Shown: piece by piece, positions 1-21,368 of the stretch
Position numbering within the stretch: the first letter of the stretch is position 1
How the letters are laid out: each line of letters begins with the position of its first letter
IMG/VR virus record: IMGVR_UViG_3300005353_000006
DNA: 21,368 nt
Strand: one strand, 5' to 3'
From: a virus
Made by a program: the position numbers and the translations under genes
Notes under the pieces: generated by a model
What the model was told of the DNA's origin: nothing
Seen by the model: the letters and a program-made list of their open reading frames with translations, nothing else
Databases searched by the model: none

Positions 1-60
1 GCCTTCAGCGACGACGCCACCGAGAAGCTGGGCGACGCCACCGAGCGCGAGACCAACGAG
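1..60. repeat. Terminal direct repeat, copy 1 (identical to 21309-21368); circular-closure overlap
   Basis: Read directly: gccttcagcgacgacgccaccgagaagctgggcgacgccaccgagcgcgagaccaacgag occurs at both ends. Confidence 0.97.
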
Positions 61-734: not shown

Positions 735-2178
735 GGCGGCACCCGGCCCGGCGCACGGATCGCTGGTGTTCAAGGGCGCCCAGCGGCCGCTGCGGCTGAT
801 CGAACTGCCGCCGTGGACGGGCTGGCGCCACACCTCGGAGGCCAAGCGGGCCGAGCGGTTCCTGGAGACCTACCTGGTGGTGCCGACGGGCCACGGCGCG
901 GCCGGGCCGTTCCGGATAGCGGGCTTCCAGCGCGAGCTGCTGCGCGAGATCTACGACCACCTGGCCACGTTCGCCTCGCTGCCCGCCGCGAACGGGAAGA
1001 CCACGTTCCTGGCGGCGCTGGCGCTGGAGCGGATCGCCCGCGGCGACGACTACGTGGAGGTGGACGTGATCGCCACCAAGCAGGAACAGGCCGGGTTCCT
1101 GGTGGAGGCCGCGATGCGGATGGTGGAGTCCTCGCCGGTGCTGGTCGATCGGTGCCGGTGGCACAGCCGCGAGCAGATCCTGGAGTACCGGCCGACCGGA
1201 TCCAAGCTGCAGGCGCACCCGGCCAAGCTGTCCGCGATCCAGGGCCTGAACTTCTCGCTGGCGATCATCGATGAGATCGGCTTCGCCCACGATGAGACGG
1301 TGGAGTCGCTGATCGCCCGGCTGGGCAAGCGGCCCGACGCGCGGCTGGTCGGGATCGGCACGCCCGGGTTCCAGGCGAACATCCTGCAGCGGCTGCGCGG
1401 CGCGCACCTGGACGGCGAGCTGCCCGCCGGTGTCCGCTACCTGGAGTGGGCAGCCGATCCCGGCTCGGCATCGGACGACCGACGGGCGTGGCGCAAGGCT
1501 AACCCGGCGCTGCGGGCCGGGTTCCTGACACCGGCCGCGCTGGCCGTCCAGCAGGGCCTCCTGAGCGATCGCGAGTTCCGCACCTACCACCTCGGGCTGT
1601 GGGTGGACGAGGCGGCAGCGTGGCTGCCGGAGGGCGCCTGGCAGGCGTGCGCGATGCAGCCGCCGCCGCCGGACGGCGGCGAGGTGGTGCTGGCGGTGGA
1701 AGGCACGTTCCGGCGCTCGGCGGCGGTCGCCGGGGCGACGATGGACGGCGCGATCTTCCACGGCTGGTGGGCGGAGGTGGCGACCGACCGCGACCTGCAC
1801 GAGCAGCTGGCCAGGGCGCTGGAGCGGTGGGACGTGCGGGCGATCGTGCACAACCGCCGGATCCGGTCGCGGCTGTTCGCCGAGCTGCGCGACGAGGGCG
1901 CGCCGGTGGTGCCGTGGGACGGGTCGGCCGACTCGGAGACCACCTCGGCCAACGAGTTCTACCGGGCGATCGTGGGCGGCGAGCTGGCGCACGATCACGC
2001 GCCGGTGGTGGCCGAGCAGGTCGCCAACCTGCGCGCCCGGTTCGGCGTGGACGGGTCGCTGCGGCTGGCCAGGCCGGACGACCCGGCCCGGTTCGGCGAC
2101 GCGGCGCTGGCAGCTCGCGCGGCCTGGTGGGTGGCGATGGCCGAGGCGCAGCAGGGCGGCGCCCCGACGATCTACTAG
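727..2178 (+). CDS. terL: Terminase large subunit (Terminase_1/HK97-like)
   Basis: Walker A PAANGKTTF, Walker B LAIIDEIGF, and a C-terminal nuclease-type region. ATG 727 chosen over the upstream 643 start because of the ATGGCTGA coupling with HNH and poorer GC3 upstream. Confidence 0.92.
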   Translation: MAEAAPGPAHGSLVFKGAQRPLRLIELPPWTGWRHTSEAKRAERFLETYLVVPTGHGAAGPFRIAGFQRELLREIYDHLATFASLPAANGKTTFLAALALERIARGDDYVEVDVIATKQEQAGFLVEAAMRMVESSPVLVDRCRWHSREQILEYRPTGSKLQAHPAKLSAIQGLNFSLAIIDEIGFAHDETVESLIARLGKRPDARLVGIGTPGFQANILQRLRGAHLDGELPAGVRYLEWAADPGSASDDRRAWRKANPALRAGFLTPAALAVQQGLLSDREFRTYHLGLWVDEAAAWLPEGAWQACAMQPPPPDGGEVVLAVEGTFRRSAAVAGATMDGAIFHGWWAEVATDRDLHEQLARALERWDVRAIVHNRRIRSRLFAELRDEGAPVVPWDGSADSETTSANEFYRAIVGGELAHDHAPVVAEQVANLRARFGVDGSLRLARPDDPARFGDAALAARAAWWVAMAEAQQGGAPTIY

Positions 2179-2290
2179 GCTGGCGGCAGGGGGCGGCGAG
2201 ACACGGTACGGCGCCCGTTCCGGCCGGACGATCATCGAGGCGCCACGCTGGCCTGCGAACCGTGCTCCGGCCGCCGCCCCCCAGGACGAC

Positions 2291-2318
2291 CAACGGGCCG
2301 CCCGAGGGCGACCCGTTG
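2291..2318. terminator. GC-rich hairpin between convergent terL and the minus-strand gene (putative bidirectional terminator T_A)
   Basis: CAACGGG(c)CGCCC-ga-GGGCG(a)CCCGTTG. Preceded by ccaggacga, the same 9-mer that precedes hairpin T_B at 3301-3309. Confidence 0.5.
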
Positions 2319-2364
2319 ACCATGGCGTGAAGGCTGCGAGCACAGCAGCCCGGGAGACCGGAGC

Positions 2365-3252
2365 CTAGCGCCCGGCCTCCTCGGCCAGCACCTTGGCGAC
2401 CGTCGGGTGGGTGCACCCGGCGAGCACCGCGATCGCGCGGTGCGACAGCCCGGCGGCGGCCGCGTCCACGATCGCCTGGCGCCAGGCGCGATCGGCCGTC
2501 ACCTTGGCGGCGGCGACCGCCACCAGCGTGGCGCCGATCGCGTCCTGCCGCTCGGCGCGGTCGGCGGCGGCGGCCTGGCCCGCGGTCTCGGCGACCTGCG
2601 CCAGCTCGGGCGCGGCGGCCGCGACCTCGGCCAGCGTGGCGGCCTCGTTGGCCTCCACCTGGGCGACCAGCTCAGGGTCGATCTCGCGCAGGTTCTCGCG
2701 GGTCGGGGCGGCCTGCAGCTTGCCCATGGTGACCTCCTCGGTGACGGGCTGGGCCTTGGCAAGGATCTTGCCGTAGCGGGTGCGGGCCTTGGCCAGCTTG
2801 GCCAGCGTCTCGGCGTGGCGCCGCTCGGCCCAGGCGATCGTCTCGGCGTAGTCCTCGGCGCGATCCGGGTACTGCTCGGTGTACGCGCCGTACACCTTGC
2901 GGGTGCTGGCCAGCTGCTCGTTGGCGGCCTGCACCCCGCGGCCGTCCTCGGCCACGTACGCCACCGCGATCTCGGCGGCCTCGGCCTCGGTCAGGATCAC
3001 AAAGCCACGCTTGAGCTGGCGGGTGGTGGTCGCGAAGGGCATGTGGGCGGCCGCGAACTTGGGCGGGTAGGCGACGCCGTAGCCGCTCATGCTGCCGTCG
3101 GTGCCGATGATCTCGCGGCCGACCCGGTAGGTGCCGGGCACGTCCTTGGCCTGGTGCAGGCCGCGCGCCTCGCGGGCGGCGGCGATCACGGCGGCGGCGG
3201 CGCCGCGGACGTGGGCCTTGCGGCCGGTGGTGGTGTTCGTGTCGGTGTTCAT
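2365..3252 (-). CDS. Orphan 295-aa protein with C-terminal HTH-like motif (cassette A); candidate DNA-binding regulator
   Basis: Minus-strand ORF with high GC3. ATG at 3252 lies 7 nt downstream of a -10 hexamer. C-terminus AIVDAAAAGLSHRAIAVLAGCTHPTVAKVL fits a resolvase/sigma-r4-style HTH pattern. The N-terminal domain is not recognised. Confidence 0.8.
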   Translation of the reverse strand: MNTDTNTTTGRKAHVRGAAAAVIAAAREARGLHQAKDVPGTYRVGREIIGTDGSMSGYGVAYPPKFAAAHMPFATTTRQLKRGFVILTEAEAAEIAVAYVAEDGRGVQAANEQLASTRKVYGAYTEQYPDRAEDYAETIAWAERRHAETLAKLAKARTRYGKILAKAQPVTEEVTMGKLQAAPTRENLREIDPELVAQVEANEAATLAEVAAAAPELAQVAETAGQAAAADRAERQDAIGATLVAVAAAKVTADRAWRQAIVDAAAAGLSHRAIAVLAGCTHPTVAKVLAEEAGR

Positions 3253-3259
3253 GGAAACA

Positions 3260-3288
3260 AGCTTACCATGGATCCTGGGGGATGGCAA
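3260..3288 (-). promoter_or_regulatory. Putative promoter P_A driving a leaderless transcript of cassette A
   Basis: Minus strand reads TTGCCA-17 nt-(TGG)TAAGCT-7 nt-ATG. -35 at 3283-3288, -10 at 3260-3265, with an extended -10 TGn. Confidence 0.6.
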
Positions 3289-3299
3289 GCGACTTTCCA
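3283..3299. promoter_or_regulatory. 17-bp imperfect palindrome O1, TGGCAAG-CGA-CTTTCCA, overlapping the -35 of P_A (putative operator)
   Basis: Half-sites TGGCAAG and TGGAAAG. An identical copy lies at 3658-3674 and a one-mismatch copy at 19405-19421. Confidence 0.6.
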
Positions 3300-3309
3300 C
3301 CCAGGACGA

Positions 3310-3337
3310 GAACGGGCGCCCCGTGGGGCGCCCGTTC
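3310..3337 (-). terminator. Perfect GC-rich hairpin T_B downstream of cassette B, abutting P_A
   Basis: GAACGGGCGCCC(c-gt-g)GGGCGCCCGTTC, with 12-13 bp arms. Preceded on the + strand by ccaggacga, as for T_A. Confidence 0.6.
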
Positions 3338-3360
3338 GATCGGGTGGGTGGCGGCCGGGC

Positions 3361-3627
3361 CTAGCGGCCGCCGCGCAGCTGGCGGGCGGTGACCTCCCCA
3401 GCGCGCTCCAGGGCGCACCGGAGATCGTCGCGGTCAGCGTTCCCGTTGGCGATGTCCTCCACCAGGCCGGTGAGGCCGACGCCGTTCAGCTGCTCGGAGT
3501 AGTGGCTGGCGAGCTGGTAGGCGTCGTCGCCCAGGTTGGCCACGATCCAGCCGGGGCGCTTGCCCGCGTCCAGCAGGTCGATCGCGGTGCGGAGGTGCAG
3601 GTTGGTGGCGCGCGTGTCGGTGTTCAT
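3361..3627 (-). CDS. Orphan 88-aa protein (cassette B) with N-terminal HTH-like pattern
   Basis: Minus-strand ORF. ATG at 3627 lies 7 nt downstream of a -10 hexamer. Shares its first five codons (MNTDT) with cassette A. AIDLLDAGKRPGWIVANLGDDAYQLASHY fits a helix-turn-helix pattern. Confidence 0.75.
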   Translation of the reverse strand: MNTDTRATNLHLRTAIDLLDAGKRPGWIVANLGDDAYQLASHYSEQLNGVGLTGLVEDIANGNADRDDLRCALERAGEVTARQLRGGR

Positions 3628-3634
3628 GGAAAGA

Positions 3635-3663
3635 ACCTTACCACAGGATCCGGGGGATGGCAA
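3635..3663 (-). promoter_or_regulatory. Putative promoter P_B driving a leaderless transcript of cassette B
   Basis: Minus strand reads TTGCCA-17 nt-(TGG)TAAGGT-7 nt-ATG. Confidence 0.6.
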
Positions 3664-3674
3664 GCGACTTTCCA
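3658..3674. promoter_or_regulatory. 17-bp palindrome O2 (identical to O1) overlapping the -35 of P_B
   Basis: TGGCAAGCGACTTTCCA read directly. Confidence 0.6.
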
Positions 3675-3683
3675 CGCCGGCCG

Positions 3684-3698
3684 GTTAGGCAGCCTAAC
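3684..3698. promoter_or_regulatory. Perfect 7-1-7 palindrome GTTAGGC-A-GCCTAAC in the divergent region between cassette B and portal
   Basis: Read directly. AT-enriched for this genome. Overlaps the -35 position of the putative portal promoter. Confidence 0.5.
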
Positions 3699-3714
3699 GA
3701 TCGTGCGCTAGAGT
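3685..3714 (+). promoter_or_regulatory. Putative rightward promoter for portal and downstream genes (leaderless geometry)
   Basis: -10 TAGAGT at 3709-3714, followed by exactly 7 nt and then the portal GTG at 3722. The -35 (TTAGGC/TAGGCA) is weak. Confidence 0.4.
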
Positions 3715-3721
3715 CGGCCCC

Positions 3722-4936
3722 GTGGGTCTGCTGGATCGGCTGCTGGGACGATCCGCACCGCCGCCGCCGTCGGTGCTCGGCCTGCCGTCCGGGTTCGATC
3801 CCGAGCTGGCCGGGCTGTTCGCCGGGTGGGCGTCGCCGCAGCTCGCCGAGCGCGTCGGCACCGCCGTGCGCTGCCTGCAGCTGGTCTGCCAGCAGGTGGC
3901 CGCCATGCCGATCCGGTTCCGCGGCGACTCGCCGGTGCCGCTGTGGGTGGCCAACCCTGACCCGGTGTGGTTCCCGAACGGCGCCGCTGATGCGACGTTC
4001 GCCACGATGGCGTCGATCTACGGCTGGGGCGACGCGTTCCTGCTGGTGACCGACCGCTACGTGACCGGCTTCCCGAGGGCCTACACCGTGCTGGATCCGC
4101 AGCAGGTGACCGTCGGCACCGACCCGGACGGCCGCGGCCGCACGTACCGGGTGAAGCAGTACGACCTGCGCAGCGAGGACGTGCTGCAGATCTCGCGCGA
4201 TCCGAACGGGCAGCTGCGCGGCACCTCGGCGCTGCAGGGCTACTCGGCCAACGTCCAGGGCGCCTACTTCGCCGAGAAGTTCGCGACCGACTTCTACCAG
4301 CAGGGCGGCGTGCCGTGGGCGGTGCTGCAGTCCAGCCGCCGCCTGGAGGCCGACCAGGCCGCCGCGCTGCAGGCGCAGTGGACAGCTCGGGTCGGCCTGC
4401 GCGGCGGCGCCCCGGCGGTGCTGCCGCCCGATGTCACGTTCCAGCAGTTCAGCTTCGCGCCGCGCGACCTGCTGCTGCTGGAGACCCGCGAGTGGGACGC
4501 CAAGCAGATCGCCGCCGCCTACGGCGTGCCCGCGTTCATGCTGAACATGGAGCAGGCGGGCGGCCTGAACTACTCCAACCCGGAGATGCTGTTCGACACC
4601 TGGTGGCGCACCGAGCTGTACCCGACCGCGCGCCGGGTGGAGGCCGCGCTGTCCACGTGGCTGCCGCGCGGCAGCTGGGTGGAGTTCGATCCGTCGATCC
4701 TGCTGCGGCCCGATCTGAAGACCGCCAGCGAGGTGTGGCTGGCGCTGCTCGCGGCCAACGTGGTGACGGTGGACGAGTGCCGCGCGGCGGTGCTGGATCT
4801 GCCGCCGCTGGCCGACGGCGAGGCGCTGGAGCTGATCGACGAGCCGCCCGGCGCGAACGCCAGCGGCCCGACCCCGCCCGACCTGCCCGCGCCGCCACCG
4901 GCGGCCGCACCCCTGGAGGTGGTGGCAAGTGCCTGA
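3722..4936 (+). CDS. Portal protein (HK97 family)
   Basis: 404 aa in the position after terL. Typical portal core QGGVPWAVLQS...FQQFSFAPRDLLLLETREWDAKQIAAAYGVPAFML...YSNPE. Confidence 0.9.
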   Translation: MGLLDRLLGRSAPPPPSVLGLPSGFDPELAGLFAGWASPQLAERVGTAVRCLQLVCQQVAAMPIRFRGDSPVPLWVANPDPVWFPNGAADATFATMASIYGWGDAFLLVTDRYVTGFPRAYTVLDPQQVTVGTDPDGRGRTYRVKQYDLRSEDVLQISRDPNGQLRGTSALQGYSANVQGAYFAEKFATDFYQQGGVPWAVLQSSRRLEADQAAALQAQWTARVGLRGGAPAVLPPDVTFQQFSFAPRDLLLLETREWDAKQIAAAYGVPAFMLNMEQAGGLNYSNPEMLFDTWWRTELYPTARRVEAALSTWLPRGSWVEFDPSILLRPDLKTASEVWLALLAANVVTVDECRAAVLDLPPLADGEALELIDEPPGANASGPTPPDLPAPPPAAAPLEVVASA

Positions 4937-6279: not shown

Positions 6280-6307
6280 CATCCCCGCCAGCGCGAAGGG
6301 CGCACCG

Positions 6308-6333
6308 TCGGCCGTCCAGTACCCTGGGCGGCC
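6308..6333 (+). terminator. Candidate hairpin terminator after the extra gene
   Basis: CGGCCGTCCA-gtaccc-TGGGCGGCCG, 10 bp with one G-U pair. Starts 29 nt after the stop and is followed by tcggccgttgt. Confidence 0.35.
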
Positions 6334-6453
6334 GTCGGCCGTTGTAGGCTGACCAGGCCGCGACGGGCGGGCCGCGCCACCACCTCCCCGGCCGCACCTC
6401 GCAGGGCGGCACGGGCCGCGCCGCTGGGCCACCGTCGCGGCGCCTCTCCTCGG

Positions 6454-6462
6454 TGCTAGCCT
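6454..6462 (+). promoter_or_regulatory. Candidate extended -10 element, TGC-TAGCCT, upstream of the capsid gene
   Basis: Second copy of ctcggtgctag (6449-6459), about 100 nt upstream of ATG 6565. Confidence 0.25.
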
Positions 6463-6564
6463 TGGCGGCGACGGCACCCCGCACCGCGCCACCCGGCCAC
6501 TAGGGCCGCCCCACGCATCGCGGCACCCCGGATCACTGACCCGATCCCTGGAGGGGCCGTCGCC

Positions 6565-15310: not shown

Positions 15311-15350
15311 AGCGCGGGGAGGCGCGGGGATCCGCGGGGAGGCGCGGGCA
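15311..15350. repeat. Four tandem 10-bp repeats with core CGCGGG
   Basis: agcgcgggga / ggcgcgggga / tccgcgggga / ggcgcgggca. Equivalently, the 16-mer cgcggggaggcgcggg occurs at 15313 and 15333. Confidence 0.85.
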
Positions 15351-15408
15351 TGCGCAGCGGTCGCGCAGACCGCCGCAGGCTGTCGCACCTACGCGCAGGT
15401 TGGCCCGG

Positions 15409-15437
15409 TTGGCGGGCCGATCGTGCGGCGCTAGGTT
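15409..15437 (+). promoter_or_regulatory. Putative xis/int promoter
   Basis: TTGGCG-17 nt-TAGGTT, then 7 nt to ATG 15445. Those 7 nt also contain GGAGG, so a conventional leader is equally possible. Confidence 0.4.
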
Positions 15438-15444
15438 CGGAGGC

Positions 15445-15669
15445 ATGGCTGTGAGCGAGCACGAGCACCTGACCGAGACGGGCGACGAGCTGATCTCGTT
15501 CGCCGAGGCCGGGCGCCGGATCCCCAAGCGGAACGGCGCGCCGCGATCCGAGCGCACGATGCAGGACTGGGGCGCCCGCGGGCTGCTGCCCGTGGTCGCG
15601 GTCTCGGCCCACGTGCGGTGGGTGAACTGGTCGGAGTACCTGCGGCGTCTCCACCACAGCACCCGCTAG
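15445..15669 (+). CDS. xis: Excisionase-type (MerR-like) HTH DNA-binding protein
   Basis: 74 aa. LISFAEAGRRIP...TMQDWGARGLLPVV...VRWVNWSEYLRRL. Lies immediately upstream of the integrase. Confidence 0.7.
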   Translation: MAVSEHEHLTETGDELISFAEAGRRIPKRNGAPRSERTMQDWGARGLLPVVAVSAHVRWVNWSEYLRRLHHSTR

Positions 15670-17128: not shown

Positions 17129-17137
17129 GCGCGCCCG

Positions 17138-17156
17138 GTGTCAATTCTGTGTCAAC
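17138..17156 (+). repeat. 19-bp direct repeat, copy 1: GTGTCAATTCTGTGTCAAC (two GTGTCA boxes 11 bp apart)
   Basis: 18 of 19 nt match 17345-17363. Confidence 0.9.
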
Positions 17157-17170
17157 CCTGACCGCGGCCA

Positions 17171-17207
17171 ACGGCCCGATCCCTGCAGCCATGCGGGATC
17201 GGGCCGT
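17171..17207. repeat. Perfect 13-bp inverted repeat with an 11-nt loop
   Basis: ACGGCCCGATCCC-tgcagccatgc-GGGATCGGGCCGT. Confidence 0.9.
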
Positions 17208-17209
17208 TC

Positions 17210-17236
17210 CCGTTCCGGTGTCTGACACCGAAACGG
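17210..17236. repeat. 13-1-13 palindrome with one mismatch, centred on GGTGTC-T-GACACC
   Basis: CCGTTCCGGTGTC-t-GACACCGAAACGG. Confidence 0.85.
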
Positions 17237-17315
17237 CCCCGCGCGTGTCTGCGGCCGTCGGCGGGATTCCGCGTAACCATGCGGGTTCGCGTGGTCTAGG
17301 CCGCGTGACCCTGCG

Positions 17316-17654
17316 GTGCCCTGCGGGTGTCTGCGCGGGCCTGCGTGTCAGTTCTGTGTCAACGCGGCGGCCCTGGTGACCCGCGCCGACCGCACCCCGC
17401 CCGCGCCCGCCGGGCGGCTCAGCACCGCCCAGGTCGGCGCCGTGCTGACCGCCCTGGCCCGCGCCGCCAGCACCGCCGACGACCGCGCCGCGGTGGTCGC
17501 GCTGCGTGACTGCCAGCTGTGGCTGAACACCACCACCGCCCTGGCCCGCGCCGCCGAGCGCCGCCAGCTGGTGCGCTGCCCGAGCTGCCGCGAACCGCTG
17601 CCCGAGCTGGGCGAGCTTCACGACCTGCTGCACCGGCTGGCGGTGGAGCTGTGA
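17316..17654 (+). CDS. Hypothetical early protein with possible split zinc-ribbon cysteines
   Basis: Good GC3 from about 17376 onward. CQFC near the N-terminus and CPSC near the C-terminus. Start uncertain (GTG 17316 or GTG 17376). The 5' end overlaps the second 19-bp repeat. Confidence 0.6.
   Translation: MPCGCLRGPACQFCVNAAALVTRADRTPPAPAGRLSTAQVGAVLTALARAASTADDRAAVVALRDCQLWLNTTTALARAAERRQLVRCPSCREPLPELGELHDLLHRLAVEL
17345..17363 (+). repeat. 19-bp direct repeat, copy 2: GTGTCAGTTCTGTGTCAAC
   Basis: See copy 1. The two copies are 207 bp apart. Confidence 0.9.
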
Positions 17655-18128: not shown

Positions 18129-19050
18129 GTGCGGCCGGGTGGTGGCGGCGCAGCTGGTGCCCGGCGCGTGGCTGTGCGAGACCTGCAACCGAGGAGGACG
18201 ACCCGTGAGCACTCCCGCTGAGCACGGCGGCGCCGCCCCGCCGCCCGAGAAGCCCCCTGAAACGCCCGCTGAGGCGATCCCGCCGTCCGAGGCCGAGGGT
18301 ACGGCCGAGGTGCTGGACGCGCCGGAGACGCCCGCTACGACGCCCGCACGTGGAAGCGGGCCTTCCACGCGGACGATCGATCCGCCCCGTGCCCTGCCTG
18401 CTCGCCGCGGGGTTCAGCTGGTCACCCGGCCGGAGCCGTCCTGGCGCGAGCTGGGCTGGTGGCTGTCGCTGGCCGAGTCGGGCCAGGAGACCGCCCAGGC
18501 CCGCGGCGGCCGCGCCGCGCTGCGCCTCTACTACGTGACCCAGCTGGGCCTGCCGCTGTGGGCGGCCAGCCACCTGTCGGTGATCAACGGCCGCCTGGTG
18601 GTGTCCTCGGAGCTGCTGCGCGCGATCGCGGCCCGCGCCGGGTACGACGTGGCGCCCGAGGACTGGACAGACGACAGCTGCACCGCCTACGTGGTGCGCC
18701 GCGCCGACGGCGAGGTGATCGGCCGGTACACGTTCACGATCGCCGACGCCCAGCGGGCCGAGCTGATCCGGCCCCGGTCGGCCTGGGTGACGCACCCGCG
18801 CCGGATGCTGTGGGCGCGAGCGGCCGCGTTCGCGCTGCGCGACGCGATCCCGGAGGTGGTGCTGGGCTTCCAGACCACCGACGAGCAGGCCGAGATCTAC
18901 GGCCGCGAGGCGGAGCCGATCGGCGTGGACGCGCCGTACGAGTACGGCCCCGCCGAGCGAGACGAGGACATCCCGTTCCGGTGGCGCGACCCGTGGCTGA
19001 CCGGGGAGGTGAACGTCGATGGCGCGGCCGACCACCTGCGACTGCGGTAG
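18109..19050 (+). CDS. RecT-family single-strand annealing protein with N-terminal CxxC-x14-CxxC zinc ribbon and Pro-rich linker
   Basis: The C-terminal part aligns by eye with RecT (YVTQLGLPL...; AWVTHPRRMLWARAAAFALRDAIP versus E. coli RecT PWVTHWEEMAKKTAIRRLFKYLP). Alternative start is GTG 18205, after GAGGAGGAC. Confidence 0.8.
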   Translation: MPTLCRECGRVVAAQLVPGAWLCETCNRGGRPVSTPAEHGGAAPPPEKPPETPAEAIPPSEAEGTAEVLDAPETPATTPARGSGPSTRTIDPPRALPARRGVQLVTRPEPSWRELGWWLSLAESGQETAQARGGRAALRLYYVTQLGLPLWAASHLSVINGRLVVSSELLRAIAARAGYDVAPEDWTDDSCTAYVVRRADGEVIGRYTFTIADAQRAELIRPRSAWVTHPRRMLWARAAAFALRDAIPEVVLGFQTTDEQAEIYGREAEPIGVDAPYEYGPAERDEDIPFRWRDPWLTGEVNVDGAADHLRLR

Positions 19051-19399
19051 CTGTGCGACCTGCCGCCATCGGGTCTACATGCGCCGATGGCAGGCCGCGC
19101 ACCCCGGCTACGCGGCAGCCGCGGTGCGGCGCCGCAGGGCCGAGCATCCCGAGGAGCTGCGCGAGTACGACCGCGACCGCTGGCACCATGACCGTGAGTT
19201 TCGGCGGCGCAAGCGGGCGCGGAATCGGGTCTCCACGGCCTTGGCCCGAGGCGAGCTGGTGCGGGCTGATGCCTGCGAGTCCTGCGGGGCCGAGCGGTTC
19301 TGCGAGGCGCACCACGCCGACTACAGCCGCCCGCTGGACGTGACGTGGCTGTGCAGGGACTGCCATCACGCCGTGCACGTGCCGGAGGCGCTGATCTAG
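19019..19399 (+). CDS. Second HNH-type endonuclease
   Basis: CESCG...CEAHHADYSRPLDVTWLCRDCHHAVH. N-terminal Cys cluster CDCGSCATC. More T-ending codons than neighbouring genes. Confidence 0.8.
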   Translation: MARPTTCDCGSCATCRHRVYMRRWQAAHPGYAAAAVRRRRAEHPEELREYDRDRWHHDREFRRRKRARNRVSTALARGELVRADACESCGAERFCEAHHADYSRPLDVTWLCRDCHHAVHVPEALI

Positions 19400-19403
19400 G
19401 GCC

Positions 19404-19931
19404 GTGGCAAGCGACCTTCCACCGAGGCCCGCCTGGCGGCGCCGCTGTGCCCTGGCCGCCGTCTCGCCCGGCGCCAAGGCCGTCGTGCTGGCGCTGGACA
19501 CCTACATGGACGCGGCCTGCCGCGCGCAGGTCTCGCGCGGCAGGCTGGCGGCCGATCTCGGCGTGACGGCGCGCACCGCGCTGCGGTGGATTCACGAGCT
19601 GGAGGCGGCCGAGCTGCTGGGCGTCGATCGCACGATCGGGCACCACGTGAACCGCTACCAGGGCCGTCCCTACGGTGACACCCGCGACACCGTGACGGTG
19701 ACACGGGCGTCACGGTCTACGGTGACAGCTGAGACCGCCGACGGTGACAGCTCACGACCACTGACGGTGACACGGGTGTCACCCGAACTAGAAGGTCAGA
19801 AGGACAACGGCGCGGGCGCGCGCGGCGACGGTCAAGCCCGCGGCGAGGGCTACGGCAGCGCCTCGGGCGCGCAGCTCGCGCGGGAGGCGGCGGCGGCAGC
19901 CCGGCGGAGGATCCTGGAGGGCGGCGCGTGA
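19404..19931 (+). CDS. Winged-helix DNA-binding protein, candidate replication initiator (lambda O-like arrangement)
   Basis: KAVVLALDTYMDAACRAQVSRGRLAADLGVTARTALRWIHELEAAELLGV is a typical wHTH pattern. The iteron array lies inside its own coding sequence. Confidence 0.75.
   Translation: MASDLPPRPAWRRRCALAAVSPGAKAVVLALDTYMDAACRAQVSRGRLAADLGVTARTALRWIHELEAAELLGVDRTIGHHVNRYQGRPYGDTRDTVTVTRASRSTVTAETADGDSSRPLTVTRVSPELEGQKDNGAGARGDGQARGEGYGSASGAQLAREAAAAARRRILEGGA
19405..19421. promoter_or_regulatory. 17-bp palindrome O3, TGGCAAG-CGA-CCTTCCA, over the start codon of the initiator-like gene
   Basis: 16 of 17 nt identical to O1/O2. No -10 lies at the position used in P_A/P_B. Confidence 0.55.
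19672..19772 (+). repeat. Five direct iterons ACGGTGACA at spacings of 23, 24, 22 and 23 bp (candidate origin iterons)
   Basis: Copies at 19672, 19695, 19719, 19741 and 19764. Copies 2 and 5 extend to GGTGACACGGGYGTCAC. Confidence 0.85.
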
Positions 19932-20038
19932 TCGCGGTGGACGCCAGCCTGGGCCTGACGGGCGGCGAGCTGCGGCTGCTCGGCGTGCTGGTGCTCGTGA
20001 TCGCGCTGGTGGCGCTGTTCGCGTCGCCACCACGGTGA
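19928..20038 (+). CDS. 36-aa single-pass membrane peptide upstream of the lysin
   Basis: GTGA overlaps at both ends. LRLLGVLVLVIALVALFA. Confidence 0.55.
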   Translation: MIAVDASLGLTGGELRLLGVLVLVIALVALFASPPR

Positions 20039-21243
20039 ACGGGCTGGAGGCGCTGGGCGTGATGGCGCTGATCCTGGTGGCGATCGGGCTGGCGGGCCGG
20101 GTAGTTCGGCTGCCGAACGATCGCGCTAGGATCGACGGCATGGCCGACGCGTACAGCTACCTGACCGACTCGGAGCGGGTGACCTTCAACGAGACCTCGC
20201 GCCTCATGCAGCTGACCGACTGGGCGGGCTGGGACGCCACCCTGCAAGCCCAGTTCGACACCACCCAGCAGTGGATCCGCGATCGGCGCGCCTATATCAG
20301 CGACCTGGCCACCGGCGAGGTGGAGTCAAGCAACGGGCCGGGCTGGGACGTGGCGCACCGCCGCGAGCGGTACGACTACCTGCACAAGGCGAACCACAGC
20401 GACGCGGCGCCGCGGGTGCTGTGCCAGCTGCCGACCGAGGGCGGCACCGACGCCGAGAAGGTCTACACGTCACAGCGCGAGCTGTGGTGGCGCGAACCGA
20501 AGGGCGCCTACTCCGAGCAGTCGGCGCGGCGCCAGGCGATCACCGATTGGCTGGTGGAGCGCCGCCAGTACGTGTGGCGCCTCGCCGAGGGCCAGGTGCC
20601 CGGCGAGACGCCCGGCTGGGATCACGCCAACCGTCGCCAGCGGTACTCCAACCTGCAGGTCGCGACCAAGCACGGCAGCGCCTACGACAGCTGGTGCAAG
20701 TCCCACAACACCACCACCGGCGAGCCGAAGGGCGACGGCAGCAGCTCCTCGGGTGGAAGCGGATCTACCAGCGCTCGAGATCGCGCGCTCAGCTGGATGG
20801 CGCAGCATCGCGGCCTGAACGAGCAGCCGGGCGGATCCAACTGCGACAGCCGCTCGGACGGGATCCGCACCGCGCAGGATCGCTGCGTGGCCATGGGCAG
20901 CTCGGGCACGTGGCTGCGCTACCAGCCGTGGTGCGGGGTCTGGTGCGCGAACGCCATGCAAGCCGCGGGCGTGAAGGGCCTGACCTACGACCTGGCCAGC
21001 GTGGAGTGGATCGAGGCCCGCGCGAAGGCGGGCAAGGCGCCCTTCACCGGCTGGACGACCGACCCGAGCAGGGTACGGCCCGGCGACCTGGTGACGCTGT
21101 TCTCACCCGGCCAGCACGTGGCCATGGTGCGCACGCCCGGCACCAACCCGGTGACCGAGGAGGGCAACACGTCCGACACCTCGGCGCAGCGCACGCGATC
21201 CAAGGGCGACGTGGTGGGCTACGCGCTGGTGGCGTACCCGTGA
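20035..21243 (+). CDS. Cell-wall hydrolase/endolysin with N-terminal TM anchor, two ~39-aa internal repeats and a C-terminal CHAP/NlpC-P60-type domain
   Basis: TM LEALGVMALILVAIGLAG. Catalytic-type motifs PWCGVWCANAM, GDLVTLFSPGQHVAMV and EEGNTS. Confidence 0.85.
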   Translation: MNGLEALGVMALILVAIGLAGRVVRLPNDRARIDGMADAYSYLTDSERVTFNETSRLMQLTDWAGWDATLQAQFDTTQQWIRDRRAYISDLATGEVESSNGPGWDVAHRRERYDYLHKANHSDAAPRVLCQLPTEGGTDAEKVYTSQRELWWREPKGAYSEQSARRQAITDWLVERRQYVWRLAEGQVPGETPGWDHANRRQRYSNLQVATKHGSAYDSWCKSHNTTTGEPKGDGSSSSGGSGSTSARDRALSWMAQHRGLNEQPGGSNCDSRSDGIRTAQDRCVAMGSSGTWLRYQPWCGVWCANAMQAAGVKGLTYDLASVEWIEARAKAGKAPFTGWTTDPSRVRPGDLVTLFSPGQHVAMVRTPGTNPVTEEGNTSDTSAQRTRSKGDVVGYALVAYP

Positions 21244-21260: not shown

Positions 21261-21368
21261 GTGACCGACCAGGCCGAGGCGCCGGACACCGAGCGCACCG
21301 ATGACGCTGCCTTCAGCGACGACGCCACCGAGAAGCTGGGCGACGCCACCGAGCGCGAGACCAACGAG
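21261..21368 (+). CDS. Hyper-acidic small protein, 5' part (continues at nt 1 across the circular junction)
   Basis: GTG 21261 lies 3 nt after GGAGGAG (21251-21257). In frame with nt 1-177 through the terminal repeat. Confidence 0.7.
   Translation, partial: MTDQAEAPDTERTDDAAFSDDATEKLGDATERETNE
21309..21368. repeat. Terminal direct repeat, copy 2
   Basis: Identical to nt 1-60. Confidence 0.97.

Follow-up and report, generated by a model that had tools for sequence, protein, structure and literature searches.

The closest described counterparts of the locus reported here are the morons of lambdoid phages, a concept of Juhala and Hendrix exemplified by HK97 gene 15 and lambda bor and lom; morons commonly encode functions of the conversion or exclusion type (reviewed in PMC3594210). 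We analyzed a stretch of viral DNA of 21,368 nucleotides (nt), the IMG/VR record IMGVR_UViG_3300005353_000006 (the whole stretch is referred to below as the window), in which the interval between the genes for the large terminase (terL) and the portal protein holds two minus-strand genes. Their products, of 295 and 88 amino acids (aa), are designated gpA and gpB. With moderate confidence we favor the interpretation of this interval as a hot-spot of exchangeable, prophage-expressed cassettes (morons), in which gpA likely represses the structural operon. As in the lambdoid morons, the extra genes lie in the late, structural region, have a predicted promoter and terminator of their own, are present or absent among syntenic relatives and are assumed to be active in the repressed prophage. 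Unlike the lambdoid morons, the island shows no GC anomaly, its cassettes have in common one putative leaderless promoter module, which extends over the first five codons, and its constant occupant is a helix-turn-helix (HTH) regulator, not a host-benefit gene.

Cluster N mycobacteriophages have prophage-mediated defence loci, which are lysogenically expressed variable islands located beside the integrase and repressor genes in the genome centre. Both cases combine a highly variable island, set in temperate genomes that are otherwise alike, with promoters of sigma-A type and an actinobacterial host (a probable one here), but the present island sits between terL and the portal gene and no protein homology was found (tblastn with gpA, gpB and the related proteins P0014 and P0020 matched none of 50,697 phage records). 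The CI/Cro switch (lambda PRM/PR) is similar in that an HTH gene antisense to most genes diverges from a lytic promoter, with a palindrome between them. Here, however, there is a single operator candidate instead of a tripartite operator, the target would be the portal, head and tail genes and not early genes, the HTH of gpA is C-terminal and unaccompanied by a peptidase domain, and location and sequence are unrelated. Finally, the last ~60 residues of gpA (a long helix and the HTH) resemble PHROG 5497/HTH_23-like proteins of Gordonia, Microbacterium and Arthrobacter phages. Those are stand-alone proteins of 60-80 aa, whereas gpA adds a novel N-domain of 170 residues and a coiled linker.

The island is flanked by terL (643/727-2178, plus strand; PHROG 9 at 1e-52) and the portal gene (3722-4936, plus strand; Pfam Phage_portal 1.7e-46, PHROG 12 8e-53). 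The genes for gpA (2365-3252, minus strand) and gpB (3361-3627, minus strand) have GC contents by codon position of 0.74/0.53/0.98 and 0.73/0.46/0.97, respectively, the same pattern as in portal and terL, and both are kept in relatives. A 434-aa plus-strand open reading frame (ORF) across the two genes was rejected as a shadow (0.93/0.54/0.72), and the remaining minus-strand ORFs with high GC at the third codon position (GC3) all lie inside plus-strand genes. gpA and gpB are therefore genuine coding genes and the sole minus-strand genes of the complete genome, as the first-pass annotation had proposed in describing two antisense orphans in an otherwise plus-strand genome. Its statement that terL and portal are normally adjacent was too strong. 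Insertions between these genes are frequent in actinophages, for example in Microbacterium clusters EC, EF and EI, in phage Hendrix and in Arthrobacter cluster AL (PMC7302621, PMC5513430), so adjacency cannot be taken as a strong prior expectation. In these reported cases the inserted genes run in the direction of the structural genes; none is a self-contained antisense unit. As a further possible precedent, genes in reverse orientation at this junction in Cluster EE Microbacterium phages were considered, but the cluster description did not bear this out.

Each of the two genes is preceded by a predicted promoter of the same design. The module of gpA, P_A (3253-3300, minus strand), comprises GTGGAAAGTCGC, a -35 element TTGCCA (3288-3283), a 17-nt spacer and a -10 element TAAGCT (3265-3260), extended to TGG-TAAGCT (3268-3260), with 7 nt to the ATG at 3252. 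In P_B (minus strand), TTGCCA (3663-3658) is followed after 17 nt by TGG-TAAGGT, with the -10 at 3640-3635 and 7 nt to the ATG at 3627. GTGGAAAGTCGC stands before TTGCCA at both genes and both spacers contain GGATCC. Neither ATG is preceded by a Shine-Dalgarno sequence, a geometry that points to leaderless starts. An Escherichia coli-type promoter and terminator scanner returned no sites. TAAGCT fits only three of the six positions of TATAAT, which is why such a scanner misses these promoters, and the call therefore rests on the actinobacterial consensus, in which the -10 has the pattern TAnnnT. Among the promoter classes of M. tuberculosis, a species rich in leaderless mRNAs, TGNTANNNT (TGnTAnnnT) is the strongest (PMC3898074). 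The regular expression TTGnnn-16..18-TAnnnT-5..9-RTG found three matches in the genome versus 0.09 expected: P_A, P_B and the start of an Xis-like gene at 15445. When TGn was included, two matches were found versus 0.003 expected. The third site, P_xis (15409-15447), reads TTGGCG-17-TAGGTT-7-ATG and matches the antisense genes in its leaderless geometry; its -10 and start are conserved in the relatives L001, L004, L006 and L012. Together with the portal gene (see below), at least four genes of this genome look leaderless.

The two promoter modules are parts of an 81-nt direct repeat, copies of which (3228-3308 and 3603-3683, minus strand) are 83% identical and contain an exact 24-mer found only twice genome-wide. 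The repeat, absent from the first-pass annotation, runs into the coding sequence, and that is why two unrelated proteins both begin with the five residues MNTDT. The module was not detected outside this phage lineage in IMG/VR and the JGI metagenomes; the other matches of the promoter pattern in the metagenomes were unrelated and lay on contigs of low GC content.

Behind each gene lies a strong hairpin that may serve as a factor-independent terminator. The hairpin of gpA (2286-2323, minus strand) has a 17-bp stem and a tetraloop; its folding energy is -52 kcal/mol on the minus strand versus -40 on the plus strand (z = -3.6), the minus-strand RNA forming the stronger stem because of G-U pairs. 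That of gpB (3310-3337, minus strand) has a 12-bp core stem and a tetraloop (-42.4 kcal/mol, z = -3.8) and would insulate gpB from gpA. The flanks AACGGGC...GCCCGTT and CGTCCTGG are common to both. Both hairpins are kept in relatives, the first with compensatory changes in L006 and the second with differences confined to the loop.

Comparison of the terL-portal junction across relatives, as the first-pass annotation had suggested, revealed that cassettes are present, absent or swapped. The order gpB-gpA is found in the window, L001 and L006. In L009 the first position is taken by an 84-aa protein (gp84) with a weakly HTH-like C-terminus, which hhalign aligned with the gpA HTH at a probability of only 14%. 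L010 has gpB, gpA and a 106-aa protein with a signal peptide, L004 has gpA and the 106-aa secreted protein, and L012 has P0014 and a 107-aa protein. gpA stands alone in L014, L041 and L022, as does P0019 in the more distant phage L026. All arrangements are antisense and share one promoter module and an MNTDT or MTTD start. P0014 (L012 10001-10630) and P0019 (L026 6001-6528) combine an unrelated beta-rich N-domain with the linker end and HTH of gpA type, a domain swap. The 106-107-aa protein (L004 9980-10300, L010 10966-11286, L012 10627-10950), absent from the window, has a typical Sec signal peptide (...AAPAAQA/ATARQ), and its start overlaps the stop codon of the HTH gene.

The gpB cassette forms a unit of 375 bp (3301-3675, minus strand) that consists of hairpin, gpB and promoter module and is bounded by the exact 24-nt direct repeat. 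It is missing from L041 and L014. L041 equals the window minus exactly 3301-3675 in a gapless alignment with three mismatches, all of them in gpA. This exact deletion or insertion indicates that cassettes come and go through recombination inside the promoter module.

The island is the most diverged stretch of an otherwise near-identical left arm. Nucleotide identity to L001 and L009 falls to 45-88% only within ~2100-3700; the portal, protease and capsid proteins are 100% identical, with 0.006-0.075 synonymous substitutions per site (dS), versus 85% and 78% amino-acid identity for gpA at a dS of 0.10-0.17. The ratio of nonsynonymous to synonymous substitutions (dN/dS) of gpA is ~0.9-1.0 overall and ~0.55 in the N-domain. 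Another strongly diverged block (18979-19930), with the genes for a 126-aa HNH protein and an HTH_36 replication initiator, is ~68% identical to the nearest relatives or unalignable.

Such turnover raises the question of whether the cassettes are lysogenic-conversion, superinfection-exclusion or anti-phage defence cargo, with gpA regulating genes of the host or an incoming phage, and gpB and the 106-aa protein acting on the envelope or on rival phages. The moron architecture, the combinatorial turnover, the signal-peptide protein of some relatives and a dN/dS of 0.4-1.0 as against 0-0.29 in structural genes would fit. However, the high dN/dS stems largely from linker replacement and from low dS under extreme GC3, no PADLOC-DB v2 family matched gpA or gpB at E <= 1, which also tells against the defence pair envisaged earlier, and neither a Pfam nor an NCBIfam defence domain was found. 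Moreover, every arrangement includes either gpA or a domain-swapped HTH paralogue, and it is only gpB and the other cargo that can be missing, which suggests that the regulatory function is core to the phage and not an optional load, and we regard cargo of this kind as an unlikely explanation of the whole island.

The constant occupant was examined by structure prediction. The AlphaFold2 (AF2) model of gpA (predicted local distance difference test, pLDDT, 78.7) shows a conserved N-terminal part (~17-168) made up of a helix, four short strands, a helix and a helical hairpin (pLDDT 85-92), a variable, Ala/Glu-rich, helical and partly disordered linker (~170-240), and a conserved C-terminus with a long helix and a predicted HTH (~255-294, pLDDT 88-96). 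The HTH (residues 253-291) matched PHROG 5497 (5e-5), and its profile retrieved ~80 small HTH proteins of 60-100 aa among 1.84 billion representatives. With Foldseek, the C-terminal ~60 residues gave a template-modelling (TM) score of 0.8 and 30-34% identity to HTH proteins of 63-74 aa from Gordonia and Microbacterium phages. In relatives whose gpA is ~45-100% identical, the recognition helix THPTVAKV is nearly invariant, and it is the linker and N-domain that vary. All 14 homologues of gpA, which are 45-98% identical, are metagenomic. The N-domain has no match in Pfam, PHROG, NCBIfam, PADLOC, a PDB sequence search or Foldseek; a profile of the gpA family against PDB sequences gave only a chance match to GrpE (E = 0.77), and Foldseek of the model against PDB and BFVD matched the HTH portion only. 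Four representative clusters contain this domain among the 1.84 billion proteins, the other three being P0020, P0030 and P0053; P0020 and P0053 are encoded in forward orientation on phage-like contigs.

An HTH combined with an oligomerising helix, in a genome where no small terminase (TerS) was recognised upstream of terL, could also describe a displaced TerS, and the small terminase of an uncultured phage was a weak Foldseek match (E = 0.38, TM 0.33, not significant). Pfam and PHROG scans of gpA and gpB gave no terminase match. TerS proteins usually carry the HTH at the N-terminus, while that of gpA is C-terminal; in addition, gpA is antisense, downstream of terL and equipped with its own predicted housekeeping-type promoter and terminator, and some relatives carry an unrelated domain in place of its N-domain. 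A role as TerS is therefore highly improbable.

For gpB, the AF2 model consists of five helices (pLDDT 89.3). Only four homologues were found in 5.8 billion proteins, Pfam, PHROG, NCBIfam and PADLOC gave nothing, and the model had no significant Foldseek match in the PDB. Residues 10-48 had been taken by eye for an HTH paralogous to the gpA C-terminus, but hhalign aligned only MNTDT. Hence, of the HTH patterns ascribed to both proteins in the first-pass annotation, that of gpA is borne out at its C-terminus by PHROG, Foldseek and, below the gathering score, Pfam, and that of gpB finds no support in families, Foldseek or hhalign. gpB is dispensable, being absent from some relatives, and the two genes are predicted to form separate transcription units; for these two reasons a toxin-antitoxin pair was ruled out.

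The control region proposed in the first-pass annotation does contain a palindrome. It is a perfect 15-bp sequence, GTTAGGC-A-GCCTAAC (3684-3698), located between the divergent P_B and a putative portal promoter, and is a candidate operator. Neither TTAGG nor CCTAA occurs anywhere else in the genome. Every close relative keeps the palindrome, in L006 with its outermost pair changed symmetrically (ATTAGG...CCTAAT); L021 and L022 have imperfect versions. It is not an RNA hairpin, since its 1-nt centre cannot form a loop, and the region shows no excess of RNA folding (z = 0.1). A -10 element TAGAGT (3709-3714) starts eleven bases after it, with 7 nt to the portal GTG at 3722, which is not preceded by a Shine-Dalgarno sequence. 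This putative leaderless promoter (3709-3724, plus strand) has the geometry of P_A, P_B and P_xis. TAGAGT or TAGCAT stands at an equal distance in L001, L004, L006 and L012; in L026 the element reads TAGTGT and is 8 nt away from the GTG. The palindrome would cover ~-38 to -24 of the portal promoter, that is, the -35 region and the spacer, a position of repressor type; its centre is near -64 of P_B. An operator common to the portal and xis promoters (CGATCGTGCG) was considered and dropped, because the stretch is not conserved at P_xis in relatives.

These features could be explained by the island being a displaced master lysis-lysogeny switch, with gpA as a true CI-like immunity repressor and gpB as a Cro-like or antirepressor-like co-regulator. 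gpA and gpB are the only antisense gene set, the island diverges from a putative sigma-A leaderless promoter with the palindrome at its -35, and the locus is the most variable of the left arm, as immunity regions often are. Besides the replication initiator, gpA is the only protein resembling a transcription regulator; the earlier remark that no other CI/Cro-type gene exists held up, as Pfam and PHROG found only the initiator-type HTH_36 protein and inspection by eye only the Xis-like one. However, the palindrome has no copy near the early and replication genes or P_xis, and no S24 or other induction-sensing domain was recognised in gpA. Immunity specificity normally varies between relatives, yet here the DNA-reading recognition helix hardly changes and the variation falls in the linker and N-domain; gpB, moreover, is dispensable. 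The missing operator copies and the near-constant HTH weaken the idea of an immunity system, which we consider a tentative, minority possibility.

The reverse timing was also considered, namely that the cassettes are early lytic genes, with gpA, for example, activating the structural operon at the palindrome and the module carrying the operator of another repressor. Late activators such as Mu Mor and C have a dimerisation helix followed by a C-terminal HTH, the -35 of the portal promoter is poor, and conservation of the GTGGAAAG box and of the GGATCC spacer extends to the distant L026, although spacers are normally free to drift. Against this, the palindrome lies where repressors bind and not at the -41.5 or -61.5 typical of activators. 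The antisense orientation, putative flanking terminators and, in relatives, a co-transcribed gene for a secreted protein are untypical of lytic regulators, and no candidate repressor of the module was found. Early lytic expression thus seems to us distinctly improbable.

Overall, a prophage-expressed moron and regulatory island agrees best with the anatomy and polymorphism described above, and its working may be pictured as follows. A strong housekeeping-sigma promoter of actinobacterial type (TTGCCA-17-TGnTAnnnT) would start transcription at or next to the ATG and yield a leaderless mRNA. Promoter and first five codons (MNTDT) would make up a portable module driving each cassette, the GC-rich hairpin closing each cassette would insulate it from the converging terL transcript and from its neighbor, and recombination between module copies would add, delete or swap cassettes. 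The constant occupant, here gpA, would be a regulator with a variable N-domain, a coiled linker and a conserved C-terminal HTH. It is proposed to dimerise through the long helix and to bind the unique palindrome beside the island, so that bound gpA would block access to the leaderless promoter of portal and leave the structural operon silent in the lysogen; gpA may also tune the leftward promoters. gpB, the 84-aa HTH-like protein and the 106-aa secreted protein would be accessory cargo, either modulators or host-benefit or exclusion factors.

A number of observations weigh against this interpretation. The GC content of the island (0.69-0.77 over 2000-3750) is that of the rest of the genome (0.67-0.77 throughout, 73% overall), and its GC3 equals that of the neighbouring genes. 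The moron signature noticed by the first-pass annotation is thus present in the promoter, leaderless start, hairpin and presence/absence polymorphism, but is not accompanied by a GC anomaly. Similarly, its self-contained cassettes are recognisable by their promoter modules and strong hairpins, but both hairpins lack a U-tract; termination without one is plausible in Actinobacteria, and the hairpins may act in this way. The match of the gpA HTH to Pfam HTH_23 (6.6e-4) is below the gathering score. L026 has the promoter and an HTH gene but no TTAGG palindrome, which weakens the pairing of HTH and palindrome, and because the palindrome is single-copy, its binder cannot also control the early and replication region. 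The conserved GGATCC spacer and upstream box could be an operator that represses gpA and gpB in lysogens, in which case these would be early lytic genes. Finally, all near relatives are metagenomic contigs of genome length (~21-22 kb), and searches for an integrated copy with gpA patterns in 185,579 species genomes (no relative retrieved), with the portal protein and with the promoter pattern in metagenomes found none.

The window represents a complete genome of 21,308 bp in a circular assembly; positions 1-60 and 21309-21368 are identical, by which the genome is closed. The phage is an uncultured temperate siphophage from soil, small for that type. Its genes encode an HNH endonuclease, TerL, portal, S78 protease, HK97-type capsid, tape measure, Dit and a Gp37-like tail protein; other genes encode a tyrosine integrase, a RecT-like protein and the HTH_36 replication initiator. 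The Xis-like gene (74 aa, assigned by eye) lies directly before the integrase, and the temperate lifestyle is backed by the integrase and by this gene with its own leaderless-type promoter. No similar genome was found by megablast of the whole window against 50,697 deposited phage genomes, and the best portal match was to mycobacteriophages (~32% identity). Scans for tRNA and Rfam families were negative. The GC content, the affinities of the phage proteins and the promoter type together suggest that the host probably belongs to the Actinomycetota. A portal search for prophages and the host gave one distant relative, L028 (64% identity), in a metagenome-assembled genome binned as Thermomicrobiales; this may hint at a non-actinobacterial host or be a binning artefact. 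In L028 (6345-9086), terL and portal are divergent, and the 90 nt between them contain no cassette, which marks this junction as a site of rearrangement in the wider group.

Repeats were also present elsewhere in the genome. The intergenic region 17129-17376, after the integrase gene and a 66-aa gene, contains the 19-mer GTGTCA(A/G)TTCTGTGTCAAC at 17138 and 17345, the only two copies; TGTCAA occurs nowhere outside them. Between them lie a hairpin (17170-17208), whose 14-bp stem is perfect, and a second palindrome (17210-17236). The repeat GTGTCARTTCTGTGTCAAC, present twice in the region, is unrelated to the palindrome at 3684-3698. Candidate roles for the repeats of this region are attP arm sites, iterons of an origin or an operator of an early promoter. 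Three tandem 10-mers (CGCGGGGAGG / CGCGGGGATC / CGCGGGGAGG; 15313-15352), located in the 440 nt of non-coding sequence that precede the Xis-like gene, could belong to attP or serve as arm-type sites for the integrase. A conserved 286-nt gap between a 241-aa gene and the capsid gene (6280-6564) has several GC-rich inverted repeats, no convincing ORF and no Rfam match; a gap of equal size is found in L001, L006 and L004. By eye, the lysis genes appear to lie just upstream of HNH and terL and not after the tail genes: a 402-aa protein (20035-21243) with a C-terminal CHAP-like Cys/His motif is a probable CHAP-type endolysin (no Pfam match), and small transmembrane-looking ORFs flank its gene (19928-20038; 209-397).

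What distinguishes the island is a putative leaderless promoter with a five-codon module that doubles as a recombination joint, two orphan families and a plausible control of the structural operon by a single operator. The gpA N-domain and gpB constitute new protein families. On a bolder and rather doubtful reading, this ~21-kb lineage would run its dormancy switch at the terL-portal site, with a regulator of a new family, in which exchangeable sensor-like N-domains are joined to one conserved HTH, acting at a single palindrome to gate the leaderless portal promoter directly. The site would also be an integron-like acceptor in which the leaderless promoter and five codons are both expression signal and recombination joint. 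The promoter and operator may also find use as a compact, strong and repressible pair for high-GC Actinobacteria. Should gpA not gate the structural operon, the locus would still stand as a well-documented hot-spot of morons that carries orphan cargo in an uncultured lineage. It offers a clear case of a tiny temperate phage that gains and loses genes with presumably independent expression; with the promoter and first codons as the joint, any incoming ORF would be expressed at once as a leaderless mRNA. If gpA does gate the operon, it would reveal a minimal design for a 21-kb temperate phage, in which the late genes are repressed directly and no early-gene cascade is needed.

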